This document shows, piece by piece, positions 42,088-55,616 of a stretch of 64,000 nt of DNA. The DNA comes from a virus. Its lineage: Duplodnaviria > Caudoviricetes. Each line of letters opens with the position of its first letter. The stretch's first letter is position 1. The notes beneath the pieces are model-generated. The model was not told the origin of the DNA and ran no database searches. It was given only the letters and a program-made list of their open reading frames with translations. The translations under genes were made by a program, and so were the position numbers. Location of the stretch: positions 1,022-65,021 of IMG/VR virus record IMGVR_UViG_3300017917_002782. One strand, written 5' to 3'.

Positions 42088-42507
42088 TGGTGGAGCCGGA
42101 GGGATTCGAACCCTCGTGTTGTTCGTTTTATTGTAGATGGACTACACGTTTATTCGATTATTCACAACCGACAAATAAATGGTTCCTATTTTGACATCGT
42201 TACCAATAACTGTGTCGGGTTCACTTTTACCATTTTCATGGGTTTATAGGTAGTTCCCTGAACGAGACCTTTGTTTCTTTTCGGGTAGAAACCACACCAT
42301 AGAGACTTCTGTTCCAAGGTACATGTCCGCCGACCCGTTAGTCACCACCGATTAGGCAGCAACTTTAGAAGTTGCAAGTAAACCTGCTACTTCCATGTTG
42401 TTGTAAACGTTGCCGTTTAAAATTCACCACCATGGATTAAAGTCTTAGATGACATCAGACTACGTGCCCATTTACACTAACAACGCCAATCAATTCCATT
42501 CGACCCC
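42088..42507 (-). ncRNA. ssrA: tmRNA, tag (A)GNVYNNMEVAGLLATSKVAA
   Basis: 5' GGGGTCG...3' GGTTCGAATCCC...GGCTCCACCA with G3-U70; internal ORF ending ...VAA-TAA; smpB nearby. Confidence 0.93.
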
Positions 42508-42543: not shown

Positions 42544-43284
42544 TTACATATCCACAAGCTCAATTGTTAATTTTTTATCTATTTCTTTCACATCCAATAC
42601 AATTGGTTCATTAATTGGGTGATATCTTTCGGTACAAGTGGATGCATTAACAAATGCGGTATCATTTATTAACATTGAACCATACGCTCCGTGAATGTGA
42701 CCAAAAACATGTAATAAAAGATTCATATTATCCACACGTTGTCTCAAAAGTTCACAACCTACATTTTGATTACCAAACATGGTAAAATCTCTTATTAAAT
42801 GTGGTGGACCATGAGTAATAAGAATGTCGGTATCATCTGGGATTTGATCCCATTTTTCTTTTAGTTCGTTTCCATTTCTTGGTAGATTAAACGCCCAATT
42901 ATAAAACTCTGGTTGCCACGGACTACCATATATTTTTAATGGTCTTGAAATGTCTGGGTGTTTGTATGTAAATTCACTATCATGTAAATAAACAACATCT
43001 GATTGTGATAAATTTTCTTCGTTCAATATATGATGTAACCATGGTGCTTCATTATGATGTCTAATACCATTATAATTTTCAAAACCAAAATCATGATTAC
43101 CGGCAATAAAAATTTTACAATCAAATCCTTTTATGTTTTGAAACCATTGAACAAATTCAATTATTTCTTTTTCTTTACCAACGTTTGTACAATCACCTGA
43201 ATGTAATAACAAATCACCTTCAGGTAGTTTATGTAACATCCCCTTATGTAGTGAATGTGTGTCGGAAATACATACTATTCTCAT
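42544..43284 (-). CDS. calcineurin-like metallophosphoesterase (MPPED-like)
   Basis: SDTH, GD, GNHD, THGPP, GHIH. Confidence 0.9.
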   Translation of the reverse strand: MRIVCISDTHSLHKGMLHKLPEGDLLLHSGDCTNVGKEKEIIEFVQWFQNIKGFDCKIFIAGNHDFGFENYNGIRHHNEAPWLHHILNEENLSQSDVVYLHDSEFTYKHPDISRPLKIYGSPWQPEFYNWAFNLPRNGNELKEKWDQIPDDTDILITHGPPHLIRDFTMFGNQNVGCELLRQRVDNMNLLLHVFGHIHGAYGSMLINDTAFVNASTCTERYHPINEPIVLDVKEIDKKLTIELVDM

Positions 43285-46859: not shown

Positions 46860-47364
46860 CCCCACGCCATTTTGGGAGAACCTTTCAAGTTTTAGTAGTT
46901 TGGCGATATAGTATCCCTACCTATATTCCCAAGATTCGTTGGAACATAGTAACCATCCAAGGTAGGTCTCTTGTACTTTGGTCCGTCTGTCATCATACCC
47001 ATCCACCTTACGGCTTCTACACAGGTACTCTTTTCACCATTTCCTCAGGACATCTTCACCCTACCCCCAAAGTTACGTGGTGAGTCTCACTCGGAAGCTG
47101 AGTGTGTATTGTAGAATTGTCCAGTATTTCTACAACTTGTGGATTCTATTACGACTAATTAAAGCCCCTTACCCCCTCAATCCATAATGGGGAACTCTTT
47201 TTTAAAGTTTCCAACATACCTGACGGAACTTCCCCATCGTCAGTAAACCCCGTTTATTAGAGGTTATATGAATTTCACTTTTTGTGTATCCTCCCCCATA
47301 GCCTTGAAGACTTCAAGTCAGGTTCACACACCATAACGGACGAGTACCTCCGTTAATCGTGGGG
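46860..47364 (-). ncRNA. ~500-nt ORF-free structured RNA candidate
   Basis: GC-richer than its surroundings, many hairpins, ends CCCCACG/CGTGGGG complementary; directly follows a tRNA. Confidence 0.55.
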
Positions 47365-47368
47365 TCTT

Positions 47369-47443
47369 TGGTGGCTCCGGCGGGAATCGAACCCGCGACT
47401 ACCAGTTTTAGAGACCATAATGTTACCATTACACTACGGAGCC
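47369..47443 (-). tRNA. amber suppressor tRNA (anticodon CTA)
   Basis: GGCTCCG/CGGAGCC-A-CCA; loop CT-CTA-AA; T arm GCGGG-TTCGATT-CCCGC; weak anticodon stem. Confidence 0.8.
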
Positions 47444-47448
47444 ATTCG

Positions 47449-47519
47449 AGGTCGGGGATGGATTCAAACCACCCTAAAAGAGCTTGCGACTCTTCACCTA
47501 ATCGCTCGGTCACCCGACC
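47449..47519 (-). tRNA. degenerate tRNA-Cys(GCA)
   Basis: GGTCGGG/CCCGACC-T; loop TC-GCA-AG; T loop TTTGAAT (non-canonical). Confidence 0.55.
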
Positions 47520-47572
47520 ATTTGTGATTGATAACCTTAATCATCAATCACAGGTACAATATTAGAGATTAG

Positions 47573-47926
47573 TTACAACATCTCCAAATTATTTTGAAGA
47601 TTTTTTTCATAATCTTCTTTTTTGGTTTTTTTCTTAGGTGTATAACCCCTCTTAACTCTTTCTTTTTGAACTCTTTTCTTTAGACTTCTGTCTTGAAAAT
47701 AATTCCTCAATTCTTGAGAAGATTCTTCGTAGATCTTTTTAATTTCATCAAAAAGTTTTGCCTTATCTTCATCAGTTAATTTGGTTTTTCTTTTTTCTCT
47801 AACACAATCCCACCATTCTCTTGAATAGCGTTTGTGTTCGATGCATTCACCTAATAGTTTATGAATCTTGTTCGAGAAAGATGATTTAATCATCATTGTT
47901 GGGTTGTGTTGTGTTGTCTTTTTCAT
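47573..47926 (-). CDS. basic hypothetical protein
   Basis: ORF in the amber operon. Confidence 0.65.
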   Translation of the reverse strand: MKKTTQHNPTMMIKSSFSNKIHKLLGECIEHKRYSREWWDCVREKRKTKLTDEDKAKLFDEIKKIYEESSQELRNYFQDRSLKKRVQKERVKRGYTPKKKTKKEDYEKNLQNNLEML

Positions 47927-47928
47927 TT

Positions 47929-48183
47929 TTAAAAAATTTTAGCTGTTATTATGTTATTATTTTCCTCAATCTCCAAATTTGCTTTGAATTTTATACTCCC
48001 TTTGGTATGAGGATTATCAGGAGTTTCTTTTGTTGAGAATCCCACACCCGGTGAGACATCAACGTGATGAACATAATAAGTGTCGCCCCGACATTTCACA
48101 ACCCACATAGGAATTGTCGGATCTTCCAAGTGTTTTTTGTTAAAGTGAAAAACGATTTCACATTTTTTGTTAATCTACTTCAT
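47929..48183 (-). CDS. hypothetical protein with in-frame TAG at codon 3
   Basis: ATG AAG TAG ATT AAC AAA... in frame with track ORF 47929..48129 (MK*INKKCEIVFHFNKKHLEDPTIPMW...). Confidence 0.7.
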
Positions 48184-48188
48184 GATTT

Positions 48189-48542
48189 TTAAAGATTAAA
48201 TTGTTTATTATATTCCTTTAGAGATAAAGGCAATGATGATGTTAATTTTCTCGTTTCTTCAGTTTCGAGAAAACAAATAGAAGTTAATTGATTCCCAATA
48301 TCGGGTTCAATAAAATAAGACACGGGTATTCCGAGTTCTTCTATTCTATAAAGTAATTTTTGTAATTTTTCTTTTGAATCAATGGATAAAGAAATAAGAA
48401 AATTATTATTCCATTGTTTTGAAAGTTCGGGATGTTCTAAAATGAACTGAGATATTGCATGTCCCGATTGTGCAATTTGATACCCGGGATTTAAGTCTTT
48501 TCGGGTTACGACTATTAGTTTGTTAATCTATAAATTTTTCAT
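48189..48542 (-). CDS. Pth2-like peptidyl-tRNA hydrolase with in-frame TAG at codon 5 (missing from ORF track)
   Basis: MKNL*INKLIVVTRKDLNPGYQIAQSGHA...FIEPDIGNQLTSICF...LTSSLPL; Pth2-like R.DL..G...AQ..HA motif. Confidence 0.8.
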
Positions 48543-48594
48543 AACTATAAATATTGTGTTACAAAGATAAATATTTTTATTTAAAAAACAATCT

Positions 48595-49029
48595 TTAAAT
48601 AAAATTTTTTATTTCTCTTTCAATTTCCCTTTTTTTGATAGTCTCTCTTTTATCGAATTCTTTTTTACCCTTCACCAATGCAACCTCAACTTTAATGAAT
48701 CCCCTTTCACTTAAAAAAATACGATAAGGTATAATCGAGTATCCTTTAATTAAATCGTTTTTTAATTTCAAGAGTTCACGTTTTTTAAGTAATAGTTTTC
48801 TATCTCTGTTGGGTTCGTGTGAGTATGGTGAACCATCACTATTAATATTAATTCCTTTAACAAATAATTCGGTACCATTAAAGAAACAAAAAGAATCGGT
48901 CATAGATGCATTTCCGTTTCTAATTGATTTAACCTCACTACCGGTTAATTTAATACCAGAAATTTCGGTTCGAATAAATGAATACTCGAACCTAGATTTC
49001 CTGTTAACAATTTCAATTTTAGATTTCAT
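48595..49029 (-). CDS. smpB: SsrA-binding protein SmpB
   Basis: NRKSRFEY, GIKLTGSEVKSIR, RKLLLKKRE, KGKKEFDKRE. Confidence 0.95.
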   Translation of the reverse strand: MKSKIEIVNRKSRFEYSFIRTEISGIKLTGSEVKSIRNGNASMTDSFCFFNGTELFVKGININSDGSPYSHEPNRDRKLLLKKRELLKLKNDLIKGYSIIPYRIFLSERGFIKVEVALVKGKKEFDKRETIKKREIEREIKNFI

Positions 49030-49490
49030 TAGATTCTTACTAAGTGATTTGCTCCATAGGTTATCATTGCACCATTGTGTTTGTATCTAACCTTATAACC
49101 CATACCTTCAACCAAACCAACAGCTTGTCTAAGTGCTTTGTTTGATTTGTAACGAGGGTCTGGATTTAAGTCAATATCAATCCACGTTGTTTTTGGTAAA
49201 CCACTATTTTTTAATAGTTCGGCAACCTCAACCGCTTTCCAAACTTCGTTGATAAGTCTTGTTGAAAGGTCTCTCTCCATTTGAGTCGATTCTTTAGTAC
49301 AAAGTACGTGTGCACCTTTTCCTTTCGTGTAAAGTGCTATAACCACACCATAAACGGTTTTACTATTATTATAACATTGAGAATCAGATCCAATTAGAAT
49401 CTCAACATCCTCTTTGTCCGTTAAGTAATTTTTGATGTATTCAACTACATCAGGTATGATTTTTCCATACAATGTTTTAAATGTTCTCAT
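49029..49490 (-). CDS. RNase H-like YkuK family protein
   Basis: ILIGSDSQ, RLINEV, IDIDLN...KSN. Confidence 0.8.
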   Translation of the reverse strand: MRTFKTLYGKIIPDVVEYIKNYLTDKEDVEILIGSDSQCYNNSKTVYGVVIALYTKGKGAHVLCTKESTQMERDLSTRLINEVWKAVEVAELLKNSGLPKTTWIDIDLNPDPRYKSNKALRQAVGLVEGMGYKVRYKHNGAMITYGANHLVRI

Positions 49491-49537: not shown

Positions 49538-49626
49538 TGGCGGAGAGAGAGGGGCTCGAACCCTCGCGGCTGTAACACCCTATCAGTTTAGCAAACTGAC
49601 CCCTTCACCAACTTGGGTATCTCTCC
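49538..49626 (-). tRNA. tRNA-Ser(GCT)
   Basis: cloverleaf, long variable arm, encoded CCA. Confidence 0.92.
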
Positions 49627-49876
49627 ATTTAGTTTTTCTATTATGCTTCCAAGTTTTATAACTTCTTTTTTTGAAAGACATAAGAAACTTTTTTTTAGAA
49701 TGAGAAATAATTCCATCATCCCAATAAATCGGATAATTAATTCCAATTTGTAAATAACGATATTCTTTATCGTTATGTGCTTTGTCCAGTTTTGCTCTGT
49801 TTCTGTTTTTTGACATAATCTATTGAGTTTATTCAATAGAAGTCGTTCATTTTTTTCATATTGGTAATTTTTGTTG

Positions 49877-49947
49877 TTCTCCCCCAAGGATTCGAACCTC
49901 GATTCTGTGGACCAAAACCACATGTCCTGCCCTTAGACGAGAGGAGA
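49877..49947 (-). tRNA. tRNA-Gln(TTG)
   Basis: cloverleaf, loop TT-TTG-GT. Confidence 0.9.
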
Positions 49948-50063
49948 ATTTTGGATAAGCAGTGACCTCTTATCCATGGTACTTAAGGTTTCGAGTTGTT
50001 TAACGACCTACTCTGAATGTCATCCGCCAGGGTGTACTTGTACCTTAAACCCGGAGCCACTTA

Positions 50064-50141
50064 TGGAGCGAGTAGTCGGACTTGAACCGACCCTATTCCG
50101 CATTGGAAGTGCGGTGCCATAACCAACTAGGCGATACTCGC
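50064..50141 (-). tRNA. tRNA-Gly(TCC)
   Basis: cloverleaf, loop CT-TCC-AA, CCA. Confidence 0.9.
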
Positions 50142-50192
50142 ATGGAGAGGGACAGGTTATTTATACCTTTAAGGGACTCCCTCAGACCCTTG

Positions 50193-50264
50193 AGCAGGTA
50201 ATCAGAATCGAACTGACATCCTCGGCTTGGCAAGCCGATGCACTAACCGTTGTGCTATACCCGC
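50193..50264 (-). tRNA. tRNA-Gly(GCC)
   Basis: cloverleaf, loop TT-GCC-AA. Confidence 0.9.
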
Positions 50265-50321
50265 TTGGAGTGTAGTAGGACTGCAGTTCCTTGAGGTTCC
50301 TACACAAATTATTCCTCTTTG

Positions 50322-50395
50322 TGGGCCTTATAGGATTCGAACCTATCACCTACTGATTATGAGTCAGTTGCTCTAACCTAATGAGCTAAAGGCCC
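50322..50395 (-). tRNA. tRNA-Ile2(CAT), lysidine type reading ATA
   Basis: CAT anticodon with GGGCCTT acceptor body typical of Ile2. Confidence 0.8.
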
Positions 50396-50400
50396 TAAAT

Positions 50401-50946
50401 TTATTCCGGTAAAACAAACTCAATAATGGTGTATCTTACCTCTTCATCATCATAGATTTTGATATTCTCAGGTTCAATGTTATATGAACACATATCACAA
50501 TCCCATAACGCGAATCTCAAACCCTTTTTAAATTCATCCATGTTTTGGATATTCATCAAATCCATAACACACTTTAACGGATTTGGTAAATATTTTTTTT
50601 CCAACATTTTATTGTGTTGATGATATGATTCCCACTTTTCTTTATCTCCATTTTCATCTTTACCATTCCATTCTCCACCATGTCTTGTTGTTATATACCA
50701 CTCATTATTCAACCTTTCATTTTCCAATGTGTCTTCTTCAGATACTTCAATCACATTGTGTGTTTGTAGTGGATCTGTTGATAATGTTGGTAAATGATGA
50801 TTAACAATATTCAACCCAACATAATATCCAAGTTGGTAATTAACAGTTAAGTTTTTCCTTTTTTCAATCCTCTCTTGTTTCCATTTTTCTTCCATTTCTG
50901 GAGTTATGGATTTAAGAAAGTCTTCAAATACTTTACTTCTAGCCAT
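50401..50946 (-). CDS. hypothetical protein inside tRNA operon
   Basis: 181-aa ORF between tRNAs. Confidence 0.7.
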   Translation of the reverse strand: MARSKVFEDFLKSITPEMEEKWKQERIEKRKNLTVNYQLGYYVGLNIVNHHLPTLSTDPLQTHNVIEVSEEDTLENERLNNEWYITTRHGGEWNGKDENGDKEKWESYHQHNKMLEKKYLPNPLKCVMDLMNIQNMDEFKKGLRFALWDCDMCSYNIEPENIKIYDDEEVRYTIIEFVLPE

Positions 50947-50961
50947 GACTTATTTTATTTG

Positions 50962-51043
50962 TGCCCGCAGATGGACTCGAACCACCGAACTCCGAAGAGG
51001 ACAGATTTACAGTCTGTTGCAATTGCCGCTATGCGATACGGGC
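50962..51043 (-). tRNA. tRNA-Tyr(GTA)
   Basis: cloverleaf with variable arm. Confidence 0.9.
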
Positions 51044-51055
51044 ATTTATTTTTTG

Positions 51056-51135
51056 TACCTCGGGTCGGACTCGAACCGACACGTCTCTCGACACGGTTTC
51101 TAAGACCGCTGTGTATACCATTCCACCACCAAGGC
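51056..51135 (-). tRNA. tRNA-Leu(TAG)
   Basis: cloverleaf, loop CT-TAG-AA. Confidence 0.9.
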
Positions 51136-51226
51136 AAATTGTGGGACATCGCTTAACCCACAGTGATTGTACTTCTCACTTTTGACGTTACCATATTTTT
51201 ATATGTTGGCATCTAACGATTTTTTG

Positions 51227-51298
51227 CTCCCCGGGGGAATTTCGAAATCCCGACCCCATGATTAACAGTCATGTGCTCTGCCTCTGAGCTACCGAGGA
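51227..51298 (-). tRNA. tRNA-Asn(GTT)
   Basis: cloverleaf, loop CT-GTT-AA. Confidence 0.9.
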
Positions 51299-51646
51299 AG
51301 TTTGTGTGTCTTCCCACACCTCCAGATTGTTCCCCTCACCACTCTAATTTCTTAGTGTAGGAATCGAACCTACATGGGCGACTTACCGTAACCTCAATCA
51401 ACGAGTGGACTCGAACCACATTCGTAGTTGGGAGAGGATTCGAACCCCTTCAGGGAGCTACCCGTCATCCATGACCTTCCATCGGACTCGAACCGACCTT
51501 CTACCATAGCCCAACTATTTTCACTTTCCATTACAAAGTGTAAGTAGGTTTAGTTGCGAACTTTCCTTTCAGTGGGACTCTCATGGTTTTTCGTAGAGTC
51601 TGTTATCCCACAATTTTAACACATTGACTACATGTGTTGAGCATCG

Positions 51647-51743
51647 CAGTTAGAACAGGAATCGAACCTGCGTCTTAGTTACTTTGTTTTAACTGTAATT
51701 CTACAAAACATTTCACTACGTGGTGCCACTCCACTATCCAACT
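51647..51743 (-). ncRNA. tRNA-like RNA with expanded anticodon arm
   Basis: acceptor AGTTGGA/TCTAACT and T arm GCAGG-TTCGATT-CCTGT; no 7-nt anticodon loop. Confidence 0.55.
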
Positions 51744-51947
51744 ATTTCGGGACGAGAGTAAGCTGCTCTCATTTGTCCCTACTTTTTTCTATCGTTTGAG
51801 TTTCAATTTAAGGTCTGGAAACTCCTTCGGTAAGGAAAGAGACCACAGTTTTCTGGTAAACTTACAAAAACCCCAAATTGCTTACATTGTTACTTTAACG
51901 TCTCAACAATCAAACTCATTCGGAAGAACTCGAAAAAAGACGGCTTG

Positions 51948-52062
51948 CCGACTAAAAAGGGTTTGAACCTTAATCCTGCATCCCCTTTCAGAACCGGCGA
52001 AAGCGTAATGCTTTTCGTATTCTTACTCCGTTCTGCTGTGCCACCTATTACACCATAGTCAA
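51948..52062 (-). ncRNA. tRNA-like RNA with expanded anticodon arm
   Basis: acceptor TTGACTA/TAGTCGG, D arm, CAGAAC...GTTCTG arm, T loop TTCAAAC. Confidence 0.5.
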
Positions 52063-52112
52063 TCGAGAGTTTCGAACCTCTCAGGTGCCGAGTTAATTAC
52101 TCTCGGACTTTG

Positions 52113-52187
52113 TAGAGTATGCGAGACTCGAACTCACACGATGTCTTCATCCCAAATGAAGCGGCTTACCAATTAGCCCAATACTCT
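52113..52187 (-). tRNA. tRNA-Pro(TGG)
   Basis: cloverleaf, loop TT-TGG-GA. Confidence 0.88.
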
Positions 52188-52192
52188 ATGAA

Positions 52193-52328
52193 AAGATAGT
52201 GATGGGATACCCGTCTCGTCCCAATCTTAATTGCTTCCTGAGTTTTAATGAGGCCTCAGCAAAGGGTGCTGAATTCCGATTCCACTCTGGATTGTCGACA
52301 TCCAGTGAGTGGGGAAAACCACTATCTT
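52193..52328 (-). ncRNA. structured RNA between tRNAs
   Basis: closing stem AAGATAGTG/CACTATCTT around several hairpins. Confidence 0.5.
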
Positions 52329-52330
52329 AG

Positions 52331-52404
52331 TACCCCCAACAGGATTCGAACCTGTGGCCCACAGTTTAGAAAACTGTTGCTCTATCCAGCTGAGCTATGG
52401 AGGC
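52331..52404 (-). tRNA. tRNA-Arg(TCT)
   Basis: cloverleaf, loop TT-TCT-AA. Confidence 0.92.
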
Positions 52405-52409
52405 ATTTG

Positions 52410-52494
52410 TGCTCGAGGCGGGAATCGAACCCGCACGGATGTTGAGTCCACAGAATTTTAAGTCCTGCGTGTCTACCAGTTCCACCACCCGAGC
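52410..52494 (-). tRNA. tRNA-Leu(TAA)
   Basis: cloverleaf, loop CT-TAA-AA. Confidence 0.92.
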
Positions 52495-52546
52495 AATTTT
52501 TTTACCAATATGTCAAAGAACACAACAAATATAAATCAAAAGGTTT

Positions 52547-52585
52547 AAAAAACAAAAAACCCGAACATTTTATTGTCCGGGTTTC
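52547..52585 (-). terminator. attenuator terminator of tRNA operon 1
   Basis: AAACCCGGACA/TGTTCGGGTTT stem followed by a U tract. Confidence 0.8.
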
Positions 52586-52611
52586 TTTTATAAGTTTTTA
52601 TAATTTTTGAC

Positions 52612-52716
52612 TTACACTTTTTCGAAATCCGAACATGGATGACATAAATATATACCTCTCCCATTGCCACTAAGTGGGTTGTTTGACGGTTGTTGTATGT
52701 TTACCAAATTTTTCAT
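52612..52716 (-). CDS. leader peptide 1 MKNLVNIQQPSNNPLSGNGRGIYLCHPCSDFEKV
   Basis: lies between promoter (TATCTTTG at 52738-52745) and terminator; carries antiterminator segment 52624-52635. Confidence 0.75.
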   Translation of the reverse strand: MKNLVNIQQPSNNPLSGNGRGIYLCHPCSDFEKV

Positions 52717-52796
52717 TCGTTTTTCAAATAAGTATCACAAAGATACGAAAAGTTTTTAAAATATCAAACTTTTTTTTAAAATATTTTTATTTTTTG

Positions 52797-52868
52797 TAGC
52801 CCCTACGGGAATCGAACCCGTCTTTTCAGGATGAAAACCTGATGTCCTAACCGATAGACGAAAGGGCC
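52797..52868 (-). tRNA. tRNA-Glu(TTC)
   Basis: cloverleaf, loop TT-TTC-AT. Confidence 0.9.
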
Positions 52869-52904
52869 ATTTAACAATTATTGGTCTTTAACTTTATTTA
52901 TGTC

Positions 52905-53210
52905 TTAGGAGTGTAAAACTTCCTTTTGACTATTTTTTATTTTGTTTTCCAATTTATCTAATCGAGAGTCTAATTGGGAAAAGACCTCTCTTTCTGTGTT
53001 ATCAATCCTTCGATTTACATCATCATGGTTATGATTAATTAAATCATAGATTTCTTTTTTTATGTTATCCAATTCATTGGATAGATTATTTTGAAAAGAT
53101 TCTAAGTTCTTTTCCACTTTTCCTACCTTGACGTATCCAACCACAGCCAGTATTGCAATTACAACACCAACCACAGAAGACACCCCTAAAATAAATGATA
53201 ATGTTTCCAT
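52905..53210 (-). CDS. TM + coiled-coil protein
   Basis: start moved to METLSF; the upstream part of the track ORF is tRNA-Ser. Confidence 0.7.
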   Translation of the reverse strand: METLSFILGVSSVVGVVIAILAVVGYVKVGKVEKNLESFQNNLSNELDNIKKEIYDLINHNHDDVNRRIDNTEREVFSQLDSRLDKLENKIKNSQKEVLHS

Positions 53211-53257
53211 AATTTTAAAGTTGTTTTTAAATTTGTCAAAGAACAATAATTGTTTTG

Positions 53258-53340
53258 CGGAGGATGAGGGAATCGAACCCCCAAGGCTTTTACACCCAGC
53301 TGATTTCAAGTCAGTGTCCTCGTCCATTCGGGCACCCTCC
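53258..53340 (-). tRNA. tRNA-Ser(TGA)
   Basis: loop CT-TGA-AA, long variable arm. Confidence 0.88.
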
Positions 53341-53352
53341 TTTATTTTTTTG

Positions 53353-53486
53353 TGGTTAGGACAGGAGTTGAACCTGTATCACCGGATTAGTATACTTACG
53401 GCATTCGTCCTCAGTTATCTATTTTACAAGTCACCTCACAGGACTAAGCGTCTTCCCGAACAAATATGTTCTTCCGCCACCTAACC
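53353..53486 (-). ncRNA. tRNA-like RNA with D-loop hairpin and large anticodon-arm insert
   Basis: acceptor GGTTAGG/CCTAACC, TTAGT...ACTAA stem, T arm ACAGG-TTCAACT-CCTGT. Confidence 0.6.
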
Positions 53487-53713
53487 AAAATTTGCCCCAC
53501 ATTGAGATTCGTGTGAGGACTAGATTGCGTCGGTTTCTTTCACTGTTTCAAGAACCTGTTGCATCTCTGCGTTTAAACCCGTCAACCCAACGTTGGAGGA
53601 ACTGGATATTGAACCTTTATCCCAACGACCCCCTCTTTAAGTTACGGAGGAGACAACTATATCATTTGATCACCAAAACGATACCAAATGGTCTGAGTAT
53701 CTCTTACTCATTG

Positions 53714-53786
53714 CAGTCCCAACGGGAGTTGAACCCGCTCCATACTCCGTGACAGGGAGATATCTTAACCGTTTGACCTTGGGACT
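53714..53786 (-). tRNA. tRNA-Asp(GTC)
   Basis: loop CT-GTC-AC. Confidence 0.85.
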
Positions 53787-53793
53787 GTATGTG

Positions 53794-53878
53794 AGCCTCC
53801 TGACGGATTCGAACCGCCGATGTTCTTTCGATTCCTGATTACAAATCAGGTGCTCTCGACCAACTAAGCGAAGGAGGC
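53794..53878 (-). tRNA. tRNA-Thr(TGT), long variable region
   Basis: loop TT-TGT-AA. Confidence 0.85.
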
Positions 53879-53885
53879 TTATTTG

Positions 53886-53958
<73 letters not shown>

Positions 53959-54013
53959 ATGTTATATCCAAATATAGATAAAATATTTTAAAGAACAAAA
54001 TGTTTTTTAAAAG

Positions 54014-54087
54014 TTGCGGGGGAGGGAATCGAACCCTCGTCATTCAGCTTATGAGACTGAGCTGGTACCTCTCCAGTCCACCCCGCA
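54014..54087 (-). tRNA. tRNA-Met(CAT)
   Basis: loop CT-CAT-AA, lacks GGG/CCC. Confidence 0.82.
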
Positions 54088-54092
54088 ATATT

Positions 54093-54169
54093 TGGTTGGA
54101 ACAATAGGAATCGAACCTATAACCTTTCGCGTATCAGACGAATGCTCTAACCAATTGAGCTATATTCCA
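54093..54169 (-). tRNA. tRNA-Ile(GAT)
   Basis: loop CT-GAT-AC, CCA. Confidence 0.9.
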
Positions 54170-54262
54170 ATAAGAGTCCCGTTTGCAATTTTTCAATTAC
54201 TTCATAAGGGTTTAGTTTCATTCATCCATCACGGGACCACGAGGAGAACTAATTCCTTACTT

Positions 54263-54338
54263 TGGGTGACCGAGGAGGTTCGAACTCCCGACCCTCTGAA
54301 CCACAATCAGGTACTCTACCAACTGAGCTACAGCCACC
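54263..54338 (-). tRNA. tRNA-His(GTG)
   Basis: loop TT-GTG-GT, G-1. Confidence 0.9.
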
Positions 54339-54394
54339 ATATTATAAGGTCTGAGACTTATAATTGTCAATTATAAGGTTATAACCTTATATTG

Positions 54395-54477
54395 AGCTCA
54401 TGGACGGATTTGAACCGCCGTGGACCTAAGTCAATGGTTTTGCAGACCACTCCATTCAACCACTCTGGCACATGAGC
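54395..54477 (-). tRNA. tRNA-Cys(GCA), long variable arm
   Basis: loop CT-GCA-AA, U73. Confidence 0.85.
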
Positions 54478-54482
54478 ATTTG

Positions 54483-54555
54483 TAGTTCCTAAAGGATTCG
54501 AACCCTTATCAAATCATCCGTAGTGATTTATTCTATCCAATTAAACTAAGGAACC
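54483..54555 (-). tRNA. tRNA-Arg(ACG)
   Basis: loop CT-ACG-GA. Confidence 0.88.
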
Positions 54556-54558
54556 ATC

Positions 54559-54990
54559 TTATTTTTGTATGTTATCCCAATCTTCTTGTGTGCCCAACTT
54601 AATTGGTACAAACAATGCAAACCCATCATCATCTTCAAAGTGGTTACATTCATCTTCTCTCCAACCAAATTTGTATCTCATGTATTCAAATTTGTTTTCT
54701 TTTTGATTCCATCGAGCAATGGTTGTTCTTCTATGTTCACCAATATAAATTTGACCATCAATCAAATCTTTTTTTGGTATTGCACCAGCCTTAATAAGTT
54801 TTGGTACATAGAACTCTTTCCACTCTTTTTCATCCACCACCGGTAGTTGAGGAACATCTTCTGGATTATTGAATTTTGGTAATTCATTTTCCCAATATTC
54901 TTTAATCTTTTTCAATTTTTCTTCTTTCATCTTCATTTTCTCCGCCTCAAACTTCATTTTGGCGGCATCCAATCCTATTTGATTATTCAT
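54559..54990 (-). CDS. hypothetical protein inside tRNA operon
   Basis: 143-aa ORF between tRNAs. Confidence 0.7.
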   Translation of the reverse strand: MNNQIGLDAAKMKFEAEKMKMKEEKLKKIKEYWENELPKFNNPEDVPQLPVVDEKEWKEFYVPKLIKAGAIPKKDLIDGQIYIGEHRRTTIARWNQKENKFEYMRYKFGWREDECNHFEDDDGFALFVPIKLGTQEDWDNIQK

Positions 54991-55006
54991 AATTTTGTTT
55001 TTTAGT

Positions 55007-55093
55007 TGGCACGGACGGTAGGATTCGAACCCACGATGAACTTTCGTTCCCGGTTTTGGAGACCGTTGCCTTTAACCACTCGGCCACGTCCGT
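55007..55093 (-). tRNA. tRNA-Trp(CCA), long variable arm
   Basis: loop CT-CCA-AA, GAAC-GAAA-GTTC arm, G73-CCA. Confidence 0.85.
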
Positions 55094-55102
55094 GTATTTT
55101 TG

Positions 55103-55178
55103 TAGTTCCTATTGGAGTCGAACCAATGATCTTCACTTTGTAAGAGTGACGCTTTAAAACCAACTAAGCGAAGGAACT
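55103..55178 (-). tRNA. tRNA-Val(TAC)
   Basis: loop CT-TAC-AA. Confidence 0.88.
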
Positions 55179-55185
55179 ATCTTTG

Positions 55186-55259
55186 CACCGCCTGGGGGAC
55201 TCGAACCCCGACCTTCTGAGTGACAGTCAGATATACCAAACCATTATACGACAGACGGT
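55186..55259 (-). tRNA. tRNA-Asp(GTC)
   Basis: loop CT-GTC-AC, slightly atypical acceptor/T junction. Confidence 0.78.
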
Positions 55260-55267
55260 GTTTATTG

Positions 55268-55352
55268 TGACCCCGGTGGGACTCGAACCCACGACTCCCA
55301 CATTAAAAGTGTGGTACTCTAAGCTTACGCAAACCAACTGAGTTACGGAGTC
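55268..55352 (-). tRNA. tRNA-Lys(TTT) with D-loop insertion
   Basis: loop CT-TTT-AA; D loop carries an extra GC-GTAA-GC. Confidence 0.85.
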
Positions 55353-55359
55353 ATAAAAA

Positions 55360-55435
55360 TGGTGGTGACGAGTGGAGTCGAACCACTATCATCGGATTTT
55401 CAGTCCGTTGCATAGACCACCTTTGCTACGTCACC
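55360..55435 (-). tRNA. tRNA-Phe(GAA)
   Basis: loop CT-GAA-AA, CCA. Confidence 0.9.
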
Positions 55436-55467
55436 AAGTTAAACCAATATGTCAAAGAACCTATTTG

Positions 55468-55538
55468 TGGAATATTTGGGATTCGAACCCATACCTCCCG
55501 CCGTCTAGCGGTTGCACATCCTTATGTGCTTTTATCCC
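55468..55538 (-). pseudogene. tRNA-like element with no readable anticodon
   Basis: D and T arms present, G3-U70 pair, anticodon loop shortened (CCGC-TAGACG-GCGG). Confidence 0.55.
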
Positions 55539-55543
55539 TTTTG

Positions 55544-55616
55544 TGGACCGTCCGGGACTTGAACCCGGGACTGAAGCTTGCAAAGCTACCGTGTTAGCCA
55601 ACTATACCAACAGCCC
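55544..55616 (-). tRNA. tRNA-Ala(TGC)
   Basis: loop TT-TGC-AA, G3-U70. Confidence 0.9.

Follow-up and report, generated by a model that had tools for sequence, protein, structure and literature searches.

The locus described here raises the question why two adjacent phage genes should each carry an in-frame amber codon a few codons behind the start codon, close to a tRNA gene with the matching anticodon CUA. It is located in a stretch of 64,000 nucleotides (the window), i.e., positions 1,022 to 65,021 of the IMG/VR virus record IMGVR_UViG_3300017917_002782 (Caudoviricetes). Gene A (48189-48542, minus strand; 117 codons including the leader) begins with ATG at 48542-48540, followed by AAA AAT TTA, TAG as codon 5 (48530-48528) and ATT AAC AAA, and is then open to a TAA at 48191-48189; it codes for a distant protein of the peptidyl-tRNA hydrolase 2 (Pth2) superfamily. 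Gene B (47929-48183, minus strand; 84 codons) begins six bases past the stop of gene A with ATG at 48183-48181, AAG, TAG as codon 3 (48177-48175) and ATT AAC AAA, and is open to a TAA at 47931-47929; an all-beta protein was modelled for it. The frame is unbroken across the TAG in both genes, and the conserved parts, namely the Pth2 domain of gene A and an FHFN motif in gene B, lie downstream of it, with no canonical start codon in between. The tRNA(CUA) gene (47369-47443, minus strand; anticodon 47411-47409) was called by ARAGORN as a class I tRNA with an encoded CCA end, and matched the Rfam model RF00005 with 59.4 bits (gathering score 29, E 7.9e-12). Among the other tRNAs of the window it has no close paralogue, the best being 69% identical.

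A sequence-only reading of the window had reported the two start-proximal TAGs and a CUA tRNA about 500 bp 3' of them on the same strand. Both were borne out at the coordinates claimed, the tRNA starting 486 nucleotides (nt) past the stop of gene B. The context TAG-ATT-AAC-AAA, which had been noted as occurring twice, is truly identical in genes A and B, though it is not a repeated element: TAGATTAAC was tried as a repeated regulatory element and rejected, with 15 occurrences (at most one mismatch) versus 29.8 expected. Suppressor-dependent translation of genes A and B is regarded as the best reading because the TAGs are conserved and local and show linkage to a same-strand CUA tRNA. We consider it likely, with some room for doubt, that the operon is a suppressor-gated translation unit in a standard-code phage, which would be read through by the phage's own tRNA(CUA).

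The genome uses the standard code, and the early TAGs are local and not a matter of recoding. Thirty-five TAGs in the window are followed by at least 60 open codons, and three of these have an ATG at most eight codons upstream and no canonical start codon within the next 12 codons. Two of the three are those of genes A and B; the third, at 49934, runs antisense over tRNA genes and seems to be non-coding. Outside genes A and B, TAG had been taken as an ordinary stop in the window, in agreement with 9 of 73 open reading frames (ORFs) of at least 100 amino acids ending in TAG. Read-through of these nine ORFs into coding sequence was rejected on the basis of their tails, which are hydrophobic, cysteine-rich and unlike the rest of the proteome. 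A NUDIX domain ends six residues ahead of its TAG, and the large ORFs of the window contain no in-frame TAG. Two relatives were analyzed in the same way. In G001 (136 kb, about 85% identical in gene A), ORFs of at least 100 amino acids cover 88.9% of the sequence under code 11, and the number of ORFs of at least 300 amino acids is 46 with or without TAG as a sense codon. The complete genome G005 (482 kb) has 125 ORFs of the latter size under the standard code, a number that rises to 131 if TAG is read as sense and to 146 if TGA is, and 47 of its 716 ORFs end in TAG. Scans for early TAGs (ATG, few codons, TAG, a long open frame and no nearby start) returned genes A and B as the only credible cases in G001, and gene A alone in G005; gene B, which was dropped there by the filter, is present and opens ATG ACT TAG ATA. 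As a separate observation, G005 (L092-L116) contains three CUA tRNA genes, at 358020-358092 (minus strand), 368276-368349 (plus strand) and 374278-374351 (plus strand), and only genes A and B seem credible early-TAG genes despite this number.

The alternative that the phage is TAG-recoded ('code 15'), with the TAGs of genes A and B being ordinary sense codons that lie early by chance, would agree with the presence of a CUA tRNA and with the low GC content of 33%. The source contig is also short (65,021 bases), and its closest relatives of 136-142 kb are rated 41-45% complete; from these sizes, the window is concluded to be a fragment of a jumbo phage. However, ORFs ending in TAG with non-coding-looking tails, large genes free of in-frame TAGs, the lack of any gain from TAG as sense in G001 and the complete G005, and the restriction of early TAGs to genes A and B in all three scans make recoding extremely improbable.

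Conservation of the early stop was assessed in related loci. In a first set, gene A was located directly upstream of gene B in 35 rows, 34 of which could be scored. An ATG, one to four codons and a TAG are kept by gene A in 32 of these 34 rows, down to 38% identity, and in 29 of 31 after removal of three rows that repeat a contig. The two exceptions are L005, with a plain ATG, an in-frame TAG at codon 33 and a CUA tRNA starting right after the gene, and L036, which has no TAG. A diverged gene A copy in L044 opens ATG AAA TAG ATA. For gene B, 84 best-hit loci were pooled with 120 loci obtained with the peptide pattern FHFNKKH; of 205 loci examined, 171 contained the gene, giving 124 distinct sequences. 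A start codon, zero to eight sense codons and a TAG were found in 103 of the 124 (start codon ATG in 102 and GTG in one; a single sense codon in 77). In L068, the TAG is internal: it forms codon 18 and falls within a conserved stretch, D-P-x-I-P-x-W. Early TAA or TGA was found in none of the 124 gene B sequences, though no other stop is nearly as common as TAA in these genomes. Thus, the check proposed earlier, an alignment of homologues for a conserved early stop, gave a retained stop codon instead of a sense codon. The published huge phages LR756504 and LR756501 have the same early-TAG opening. In LR756501, a 735-kb phage, the gene A homologue (L249 1992-2380) contains two in-frame TAGs, one at codon 3 and an internal one near the position of the internal TAG of L005. 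In the TAG-recoded phage Lak-B4 (L247 1344-1416), a UUA tRNA, which reads TAA, was seen about 600 nt upstream of a gene A-like stretch; no early TAG was seen in that stretch.

These data also bear on the view that genes A and B are broken genes or products of assembly errors. Gene callers do shorten them, a protein atlas carries gene B only from residue 23, and the GenBank homologues in RHph_I1_18, BF, GAP32 and Atu_ph07 are unannotated or shortened. On the other hand, the stop is found at the same place in more than 100 distinct sequences with strong constraint downstream of it, including 14 invariant columns in gene B. In addition, contigs from four independent studies were compared with the window, and the 40 listed of 146 differences leave both operon TAGs and the anticodon untouched. 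The chance that the genes are merely damaged or misassembled is regarded as negligible.

Linkage to the tRNA was examined for the 124 distinct gene B sequences. A CUA tRNA was found within 3 kb in 89 cases, and in 89 of 89 it is encoded on the strand of gene B. It is located upstream of gene B in 70 of them, with a minimal distance of about 20 nt to the ATG, and downstream in 19, as in the window. Such a tRNA is paired with TAG in 76 of 104 TAG-bearing gene B sequences.

The few loci with another type of stop were compared with their tRNAs. In Agrobacterium phage Atu_ph07, the Pth2 frame runs back to ATG ATT GGC GAA CAC TTT TGA ATT AAT, while the GenBank coding sequence (CDS) starts at an internal ATG. 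ARAGORN placed a UCA tRNA at 430713-430787; no second suppressor-type tRNA, and in particular no CUA tRNA, was found in the 153 kb examined. The related phage Phosso has the same gene order and a Pth2 protein closely similar by eye; its gene opens ATG AAG TAT TAG GTT, and a CUA tRNA is located at 446731-446806. In the metagenomic contig L194, the Pth2 gene opens with ATG, six codons and TGA, and the sole tRNA of the locus has the anticodon UCA. The type of stop covaries with the predicted suppressor anticodon, with two TGA cases only, which agree with the 89 TAG-CUA pairs. The TAG type was found in further cultured phages. In Serratia phage BF, the gene is unannotated and opens ATG ACG CAC TAG AAT (CUA tRNA at 289666-289741); in Cronobacter phage GAP32, it opens ATG GCA CAA TAG AAT, and the annotated CDS begins further inside the gene (CUA tRNA at 293273-293345). 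The CUA tRNA lies some 3 kb 3' of the gene in these phages. Gene B of Rhizobium phage RHph_I1_18 is likewise unannotated and opens ATG AGT GAG TTC ATG TAG AAC, with a CUA tRNA 12 nt past its stop. In phage XacN1 (L250 961-1800), the gene A-like domain forms the C-terminal part of the 279-amino-acid ORF364 and contains no in-frame stop; as this domain is fused without a stop, it offers no target for the two CUA tRNAs of XacN1.

The sequence around the TAG was evaluated with respect to suppression. Of 103 gene B sequences, 97 have an A directly behind the TAG (+4), compared to 35% A at the first codon positions of the same ORFs. A purine at +4 improves amber suppression, with a 10-fold rise from C to A for SupE, according to the accessible text of PMC6266110. 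TAG-less relatives of gene B in its short form open ATG CTT AAT ATT, equal in length to ATG AAG TAG ATT. Inspection by eye of loci of the Shine-Dalgarno (SD) type placed the motif 6-8 nt ahead of the ATG.

According to the preferred reading, ribosomes would start at the ATG and meet the UAG two to four codons on. They would pass into the conserved protein only if the charged tRNA(CUA) of the phage beats release factor 1 (RF1); otherwise, a peptide of two to four residues would be released. As the UAG lies in a non-conserved N-terminal tail, an inserted residue of any kind should be tolerated and the aborted products would be tiny. With a tolerant tail and a suppression-friendly context, the gate would therefore be cheap and would pass well whenever the tRNA is active.

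A number of observations weigh against suppressor-gated translation. Plain ATG openings without TAG were found in 20 of the 124 gene B sequences (L183 being ambiguous), and 35 of the 124 have no CUA tRNA within 3 kb; in 11 of these 35, the upstream flank is shorter than 1.5 kb. A tally of 107 CUA tRNAs by nearest isotype was scattered, with Gln nearest for one of the 107, and points to no particular inserted residue. ATT follows TAG in 81 of 103 gene B sequences. It makes up 81 of 90 Ile codons after TAG, compared to 49.5% of the Ile codons in the same ORFs, a nucleotide-level bias that would also fit AUU as a start codon; its p-value is inflated by the relatedness of the sequences. Eight TAG-less relatives of the long form of gene B have their ATG at the position of the TAG of the others, or one codon past it. 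In the cluster C mycobacteriophages Myrna (L124 1474-1482) and Catera (L126 1474-1482), the Pth2-like gene opens GTG/ATG TAG GTG, with an SD motif at a distance suited to the GTG behind the TAG; these two phages can probably do without suppression. ARAGORN places a CUA tRNA 130-250 nt downstream in both phages, which GenBank labels as another isotype. Finally, the tRNA is co-transcribed with genes A and B; a pure timer therefore seems unlikely, and a role in timing is not obvious.

Three of these points, the excess of ATT after TAG, the ATG of the long forms at or beside the TAG position, and the SD spacing in Myrna and Catera, would equally be expected if ATG-X-TAG were a separate upstream ORF of two to four codons and the proteins began at the AUU by re-initiation or weak initiation. 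AUU is usable as a weak start codon, and the window sequence on its own is compatible with such a start; in that case, the tRNA(CUA) would play no part, or would do no more than allow a longer isoform as well. However, in 13 of the 103 gene B sequences the TAG is followed by AAC, AAT, AAG, AAA, CAC, GTA or GTT, codons unable to start translation, and in L048 and L063 the whole stretch from the TAG to the conserved FHFN motif lacks start-like codons. An upstream ORF also does not account for the internal TAGs of L005, L068 and LR756501, for a stop that is without exception TAG in the 103 gene B sequences, with TGA seen in Pth2 genes alongside a UCA tRNA, or for the constant location of the CUA tRNA on the same strand. 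The SD spacing at the inspected loci suits the ATG. We rate this explanation as quite unlikely. Initiation at the ATT had been named earlier as the alternative to be excluded: it cannot account for many of the homologues, and an AUU start stays a minor rival in some lineages.

A second explanation of the short openings follows the logic of minigenes. Lambda bar minigenes and their link to peptidyl-tRNA hydrolase are a known example. ATG-X-TAG would make short peptidyl-tRNAs by drop-off, and expression of the Pth2-like gene would be tied to the peptidyl-tRNA load, not to the suppressor. This would fit openings of one to five codons including the start in 101 of 103 gene B sequences (nine in the other two), the assignment of gene A to a peptidyl-tRNA hydrolase superfamily, and the presence of genes for transfer-messenger RNA (tmRNA) and SmpB nearby. 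It leaves unexplained why the stop is constantly TAG, and TGA together with a UCA tRNA, as well as the internal TAGs and the same-strand linkage of the tRNA, and is judged to be very unlikely. Suppressor-dependent read-through remains the preferred reading for what follows.

The protein encoded by gene A was compared with known families. It matched PF01981 (PTH2) with E 2.1e-5 and 25.1 bits (cut-off 23), the match beginning at the third codon past the TAG. A profile of gene A relatives matched the Pth2 structures 2zv3 (E 4.1e-8) and Bit1 (1q7s; E 1.1e-5). An R-x-D-L ... Q-x-x-H-A core is common to gene A relatives and Pth2, with the H invariant. Compared to canonical Pth2, the GKGK loop (as in 2zv3) is two residues shorter in gene A, and the D-A-G-x-T stretch reads E-P-D-x-x-N-Q-x-T. 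The predicted protein is a member of the Pth2 superfamily distant from the canonical enzyme: scores of 17.7 and 16.3 were obtained with the NCBIfam Pth2 equivalog models TIGR00283 and NF003314, respectively, below the cut-offs of 82 and 126. The earlier claim of a suppressor switch for a hydrolase is thus upheld in one part, suppressor-dependent translation of genes A and B being the best reading, and not in the other, a working peptidyl-tRNA hydrolase, as the scores are far below the equivalog cut-offs. The PHROG family of gene A has no assigned function. Relatives were found in 234 phage records, 206 of them from Mycobacterium phages, where the gene is located among tRNA genes. Single-protein scans for wider Pth2-like loci gave one and three loci only.

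Gene B was not assigned to any family in Pfam, PHROG, NCBIfam or PADLOC. The 14 invariant columns mentioned above were found in 34 sequences with 54-94% identity to the window copy. Three forms of the protein were distinguished: a short form, as in the window; a long form, extended by a ferredoxin-like domain at the C-terminus and by an acidic tail; and an N-terminally extended fusion. The fusion form is found in Atu_ph07 and Phosso, where gene B follows the N-terminal extension without a stop. For the short form, a confident all-beta model was obtained (predicted local distance difference test, pLDDT, 91.6). In comparisons with the PDB, its best Foldseek match had an E-value of 0.81, and the best VIA match had Z 3.8 with a root-mean-square deviation (rmsd) of 4.5 over 56 residues; neither is convincing, though the lack of a match is no proof of a new fold. 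Matches in BFVD were to uncharacterised viral proteins only, and the protein atlas contained no match of 0.9 or more. The long form was modelled with a pLDDT of 83.5. Its extra C-terminal domain has a generic ferredoxin/ACT/RRM-type look (best VIA match 6lpi_E, Z 5.4, rmsd 3.3 over 75 residues), and Foldseek gave nothing below E 0.03 for the long form. Deriving a function of gene B from this domain was rejected, as the fold arrangement is too common. Neither gene A nor gene B showed resemblance to release factors in scans with Pfam, PHROG and NCBIfam.

If the gate operates as proposed, a sense codon would do as well if the tRNA served these two codons only; the design therefore makes sense only with an output that follows some feature of the suppressor or of termination. 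Our guess is that production of the hydrolase-like enzyme and its companion protein would be matched to suppressor activity, as a homeostat or as matched rescue capacity, and that the gate would act alongside the nearby tmRNA, SmpB and tRNA set. The probability of suppressor-activity matching as the purpose is put well below an even chance. Sensing of weak RF1 termination and positive feedback by the suppressor, both suggested in the sequence-only reading, are conjectural. One point speaks against timing by suppressor 'accumulation': the tRNA is located at the end of the same operon, and there is no obvious lag between its build-up and that of the mRNA. A bolder idea, which we consider unlikely, is that a self-contained and portable sensor of translation is made up of tRNA(CUA), the Pth2-like gene and gene B. 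Gene B might be a new factor that acts on the UAG decision, e.g., by opposing RF1 or by targeting the suppressor tRNA, and the tRNA might be reset by the hydrolase-like enzyme; having spread through standard-code jumbo phages, the module might be the seed of full TAG/TGA recoding. If this were true, engineered amber-suppression switches would have a counterpart in nature.

The arrangement was compared with known systems. Code 15 phages, in which TAG is read as Gln, carry suppressor tRNAs and 'code-change modules', and in-frame stops were proposed to control translation of phage genes (accessible text of bioRxiv 10.1101/2021.08.26.457843). As in the window phage, a CUA tRNA of the phage overrides a stop codon of the host. 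In contrast to these phages, TAG is a normal stop in the window phage, the gate would act on two small genes, and the TAG is start-proximal and located beside the tRNA. The stops of code 15 phages are found in lysis or structural genes, whereas the gated genes are translation-related here, and the CUA tRNAs are not Gln-like, as seen from the isotype tally. Start-proximal stops or Pth2 are not mentioned in the accessible part of that preprint. Standard-code jumbo phages with many tRNAs, one or two CUA/UCA tRNAs and a peptidyl-tRNA hydrolase gene have been described before, namely XacN1 (PMC5852040), RsoM2USA (PMC8504454) and Atu_ph07 (PMC6102473), and are similar in these respects. According to the accessible parts of these papers, target genes of the CUA tRNAs could not be identified in XacN1, and suppressor targets were only guessed for RsoM2USA and for Atu_ph07, which has one UCA suppressor. 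Targets with C-terminal read-through were searched for in the three studies as far as these parts go, whereas the stops found here are start-proximal.

Conditional amber mutants and laboratory suppressor switches likewise depend on a charged suppressor tRNA matching an early UAG, with A at +4 being favourable; they are mutant or engineered, whereas the present case is natural, conserved and carried by the phage together with the tRNA. A further parallel is prfB, the gene for release factor 2 (RF2), which is autoregulated via an early in-frame UGA and a +1 frameshift, its product reading that stop. There too, an early stop ties the output of a translation-factor gene to the efficiency of termination; a frameshift is used in prfB, whereas none is present here and a dedicated tRNA would read the stop, the products of genes A and B not being known to act in termination.

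A description of start-proximal stops matched to phage suppressor tRNAs was not found in the accessible parts of the open literature, with supplements and subscription journals not covered. What appears to be new is read-through by a suppressor tRNA as a conserved and local gate of individual genes, predicted in more than 100 distinct sequences. The puzzling suppressor tRNAs that recur in standard-code phages thereby gain a concrete target, a conserved gene pair with a matching start-proximal stop, and the early stops explain why gene callers miss or shorten genes A and B. The operon would represent a naturally occurring form of gene regulation in which a tRNA competes with a release factor. 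In the accessible text of the recoding preprint (bioRxiv 10.1101/2021.08.26.457843), it is proposed that the suppressor is acquired first and recoding follows later, and the window module is consistent with this order. For further work, it is relevant that the module occurs in the cultured phages BF, GAP32, RHph_I1_18, Atu_ph07 and Phosso.

The remaining features of the operon are as follows. A promoter-like octamer, TATCTTTG, is located at 48562-48569 on the minus strand, 19 nt 5' of the ATG of gene A, and is present in the sequence as claimed before. It is kept 5' of gene A in L001-L004 (as TACTTTTG in L004) and fits the form TAnnTTTG, which we take to be the -7 element of Bacteroidota; the sigma-70 promoter scan applies to a promoter type other than this form. 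Between gene B and the tRNAs lies gene C (47573-47926, minus strand), a lysine-rich ORF of 117 amino acids with a plain ATG, which gave no family match in scans with Pfam, PHROG and NCBIfam. A tRNA-like element at 47448-47519 (minus strand), 4 nt upstream of the CUA tRNA, was called tRNA-Cys(GCA) by ARAGORN. It was not reported by the Rfam tRNA model at E up to 0.1, and may be a degenerate tRNA or a tRNA mimic. Among 89 related loci, 9 have a Cys(GCA) call no more than 250 nt away from the CUA tRNA. No convincing terminator was detected in the interval from gene A to the tRNA; the few weak stem-loops are located inside genes or the tRNA-like element.

The gene for SmpB (48595-49029, minus strand; PF01668, E 8.8e-43) is separated from gene A by a short spacer. 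The operon is flanked further by the tmRNA (42088-42507), a YkuK-type RNase H-like protein (49029-49490) and an array of 26 further tRNAs (49538-55616). In total, 28 tRNAs and one tmRNA were called by ARAGORN in the window. A metallophosphoesterase is encoded at 42544-43284, and a metallophosphatase is also located 3' of the gene B homologue in Atu_ph07 and Phosso. Three class I tRNAs called by ARAGORN are unusually long, namely Trp at 55007-55093 (87 nt), Thr at 53793-53878 (86 nt) and Cys at 54394-54477 (84 nt); introns or miscalls are possible.

Metagenomes of at least ten studies, from freshwater, lake, pond, plankton and aquaculture samples, contain near-identical DNA. Just 3' of the CUA tRNA, at 47300-47368, contig depth was several-fold above that of the operon in four runs, and many contigs diverge exactly at position 47368. 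This suggests that 47300-47368 is a short element common to several different genomes.

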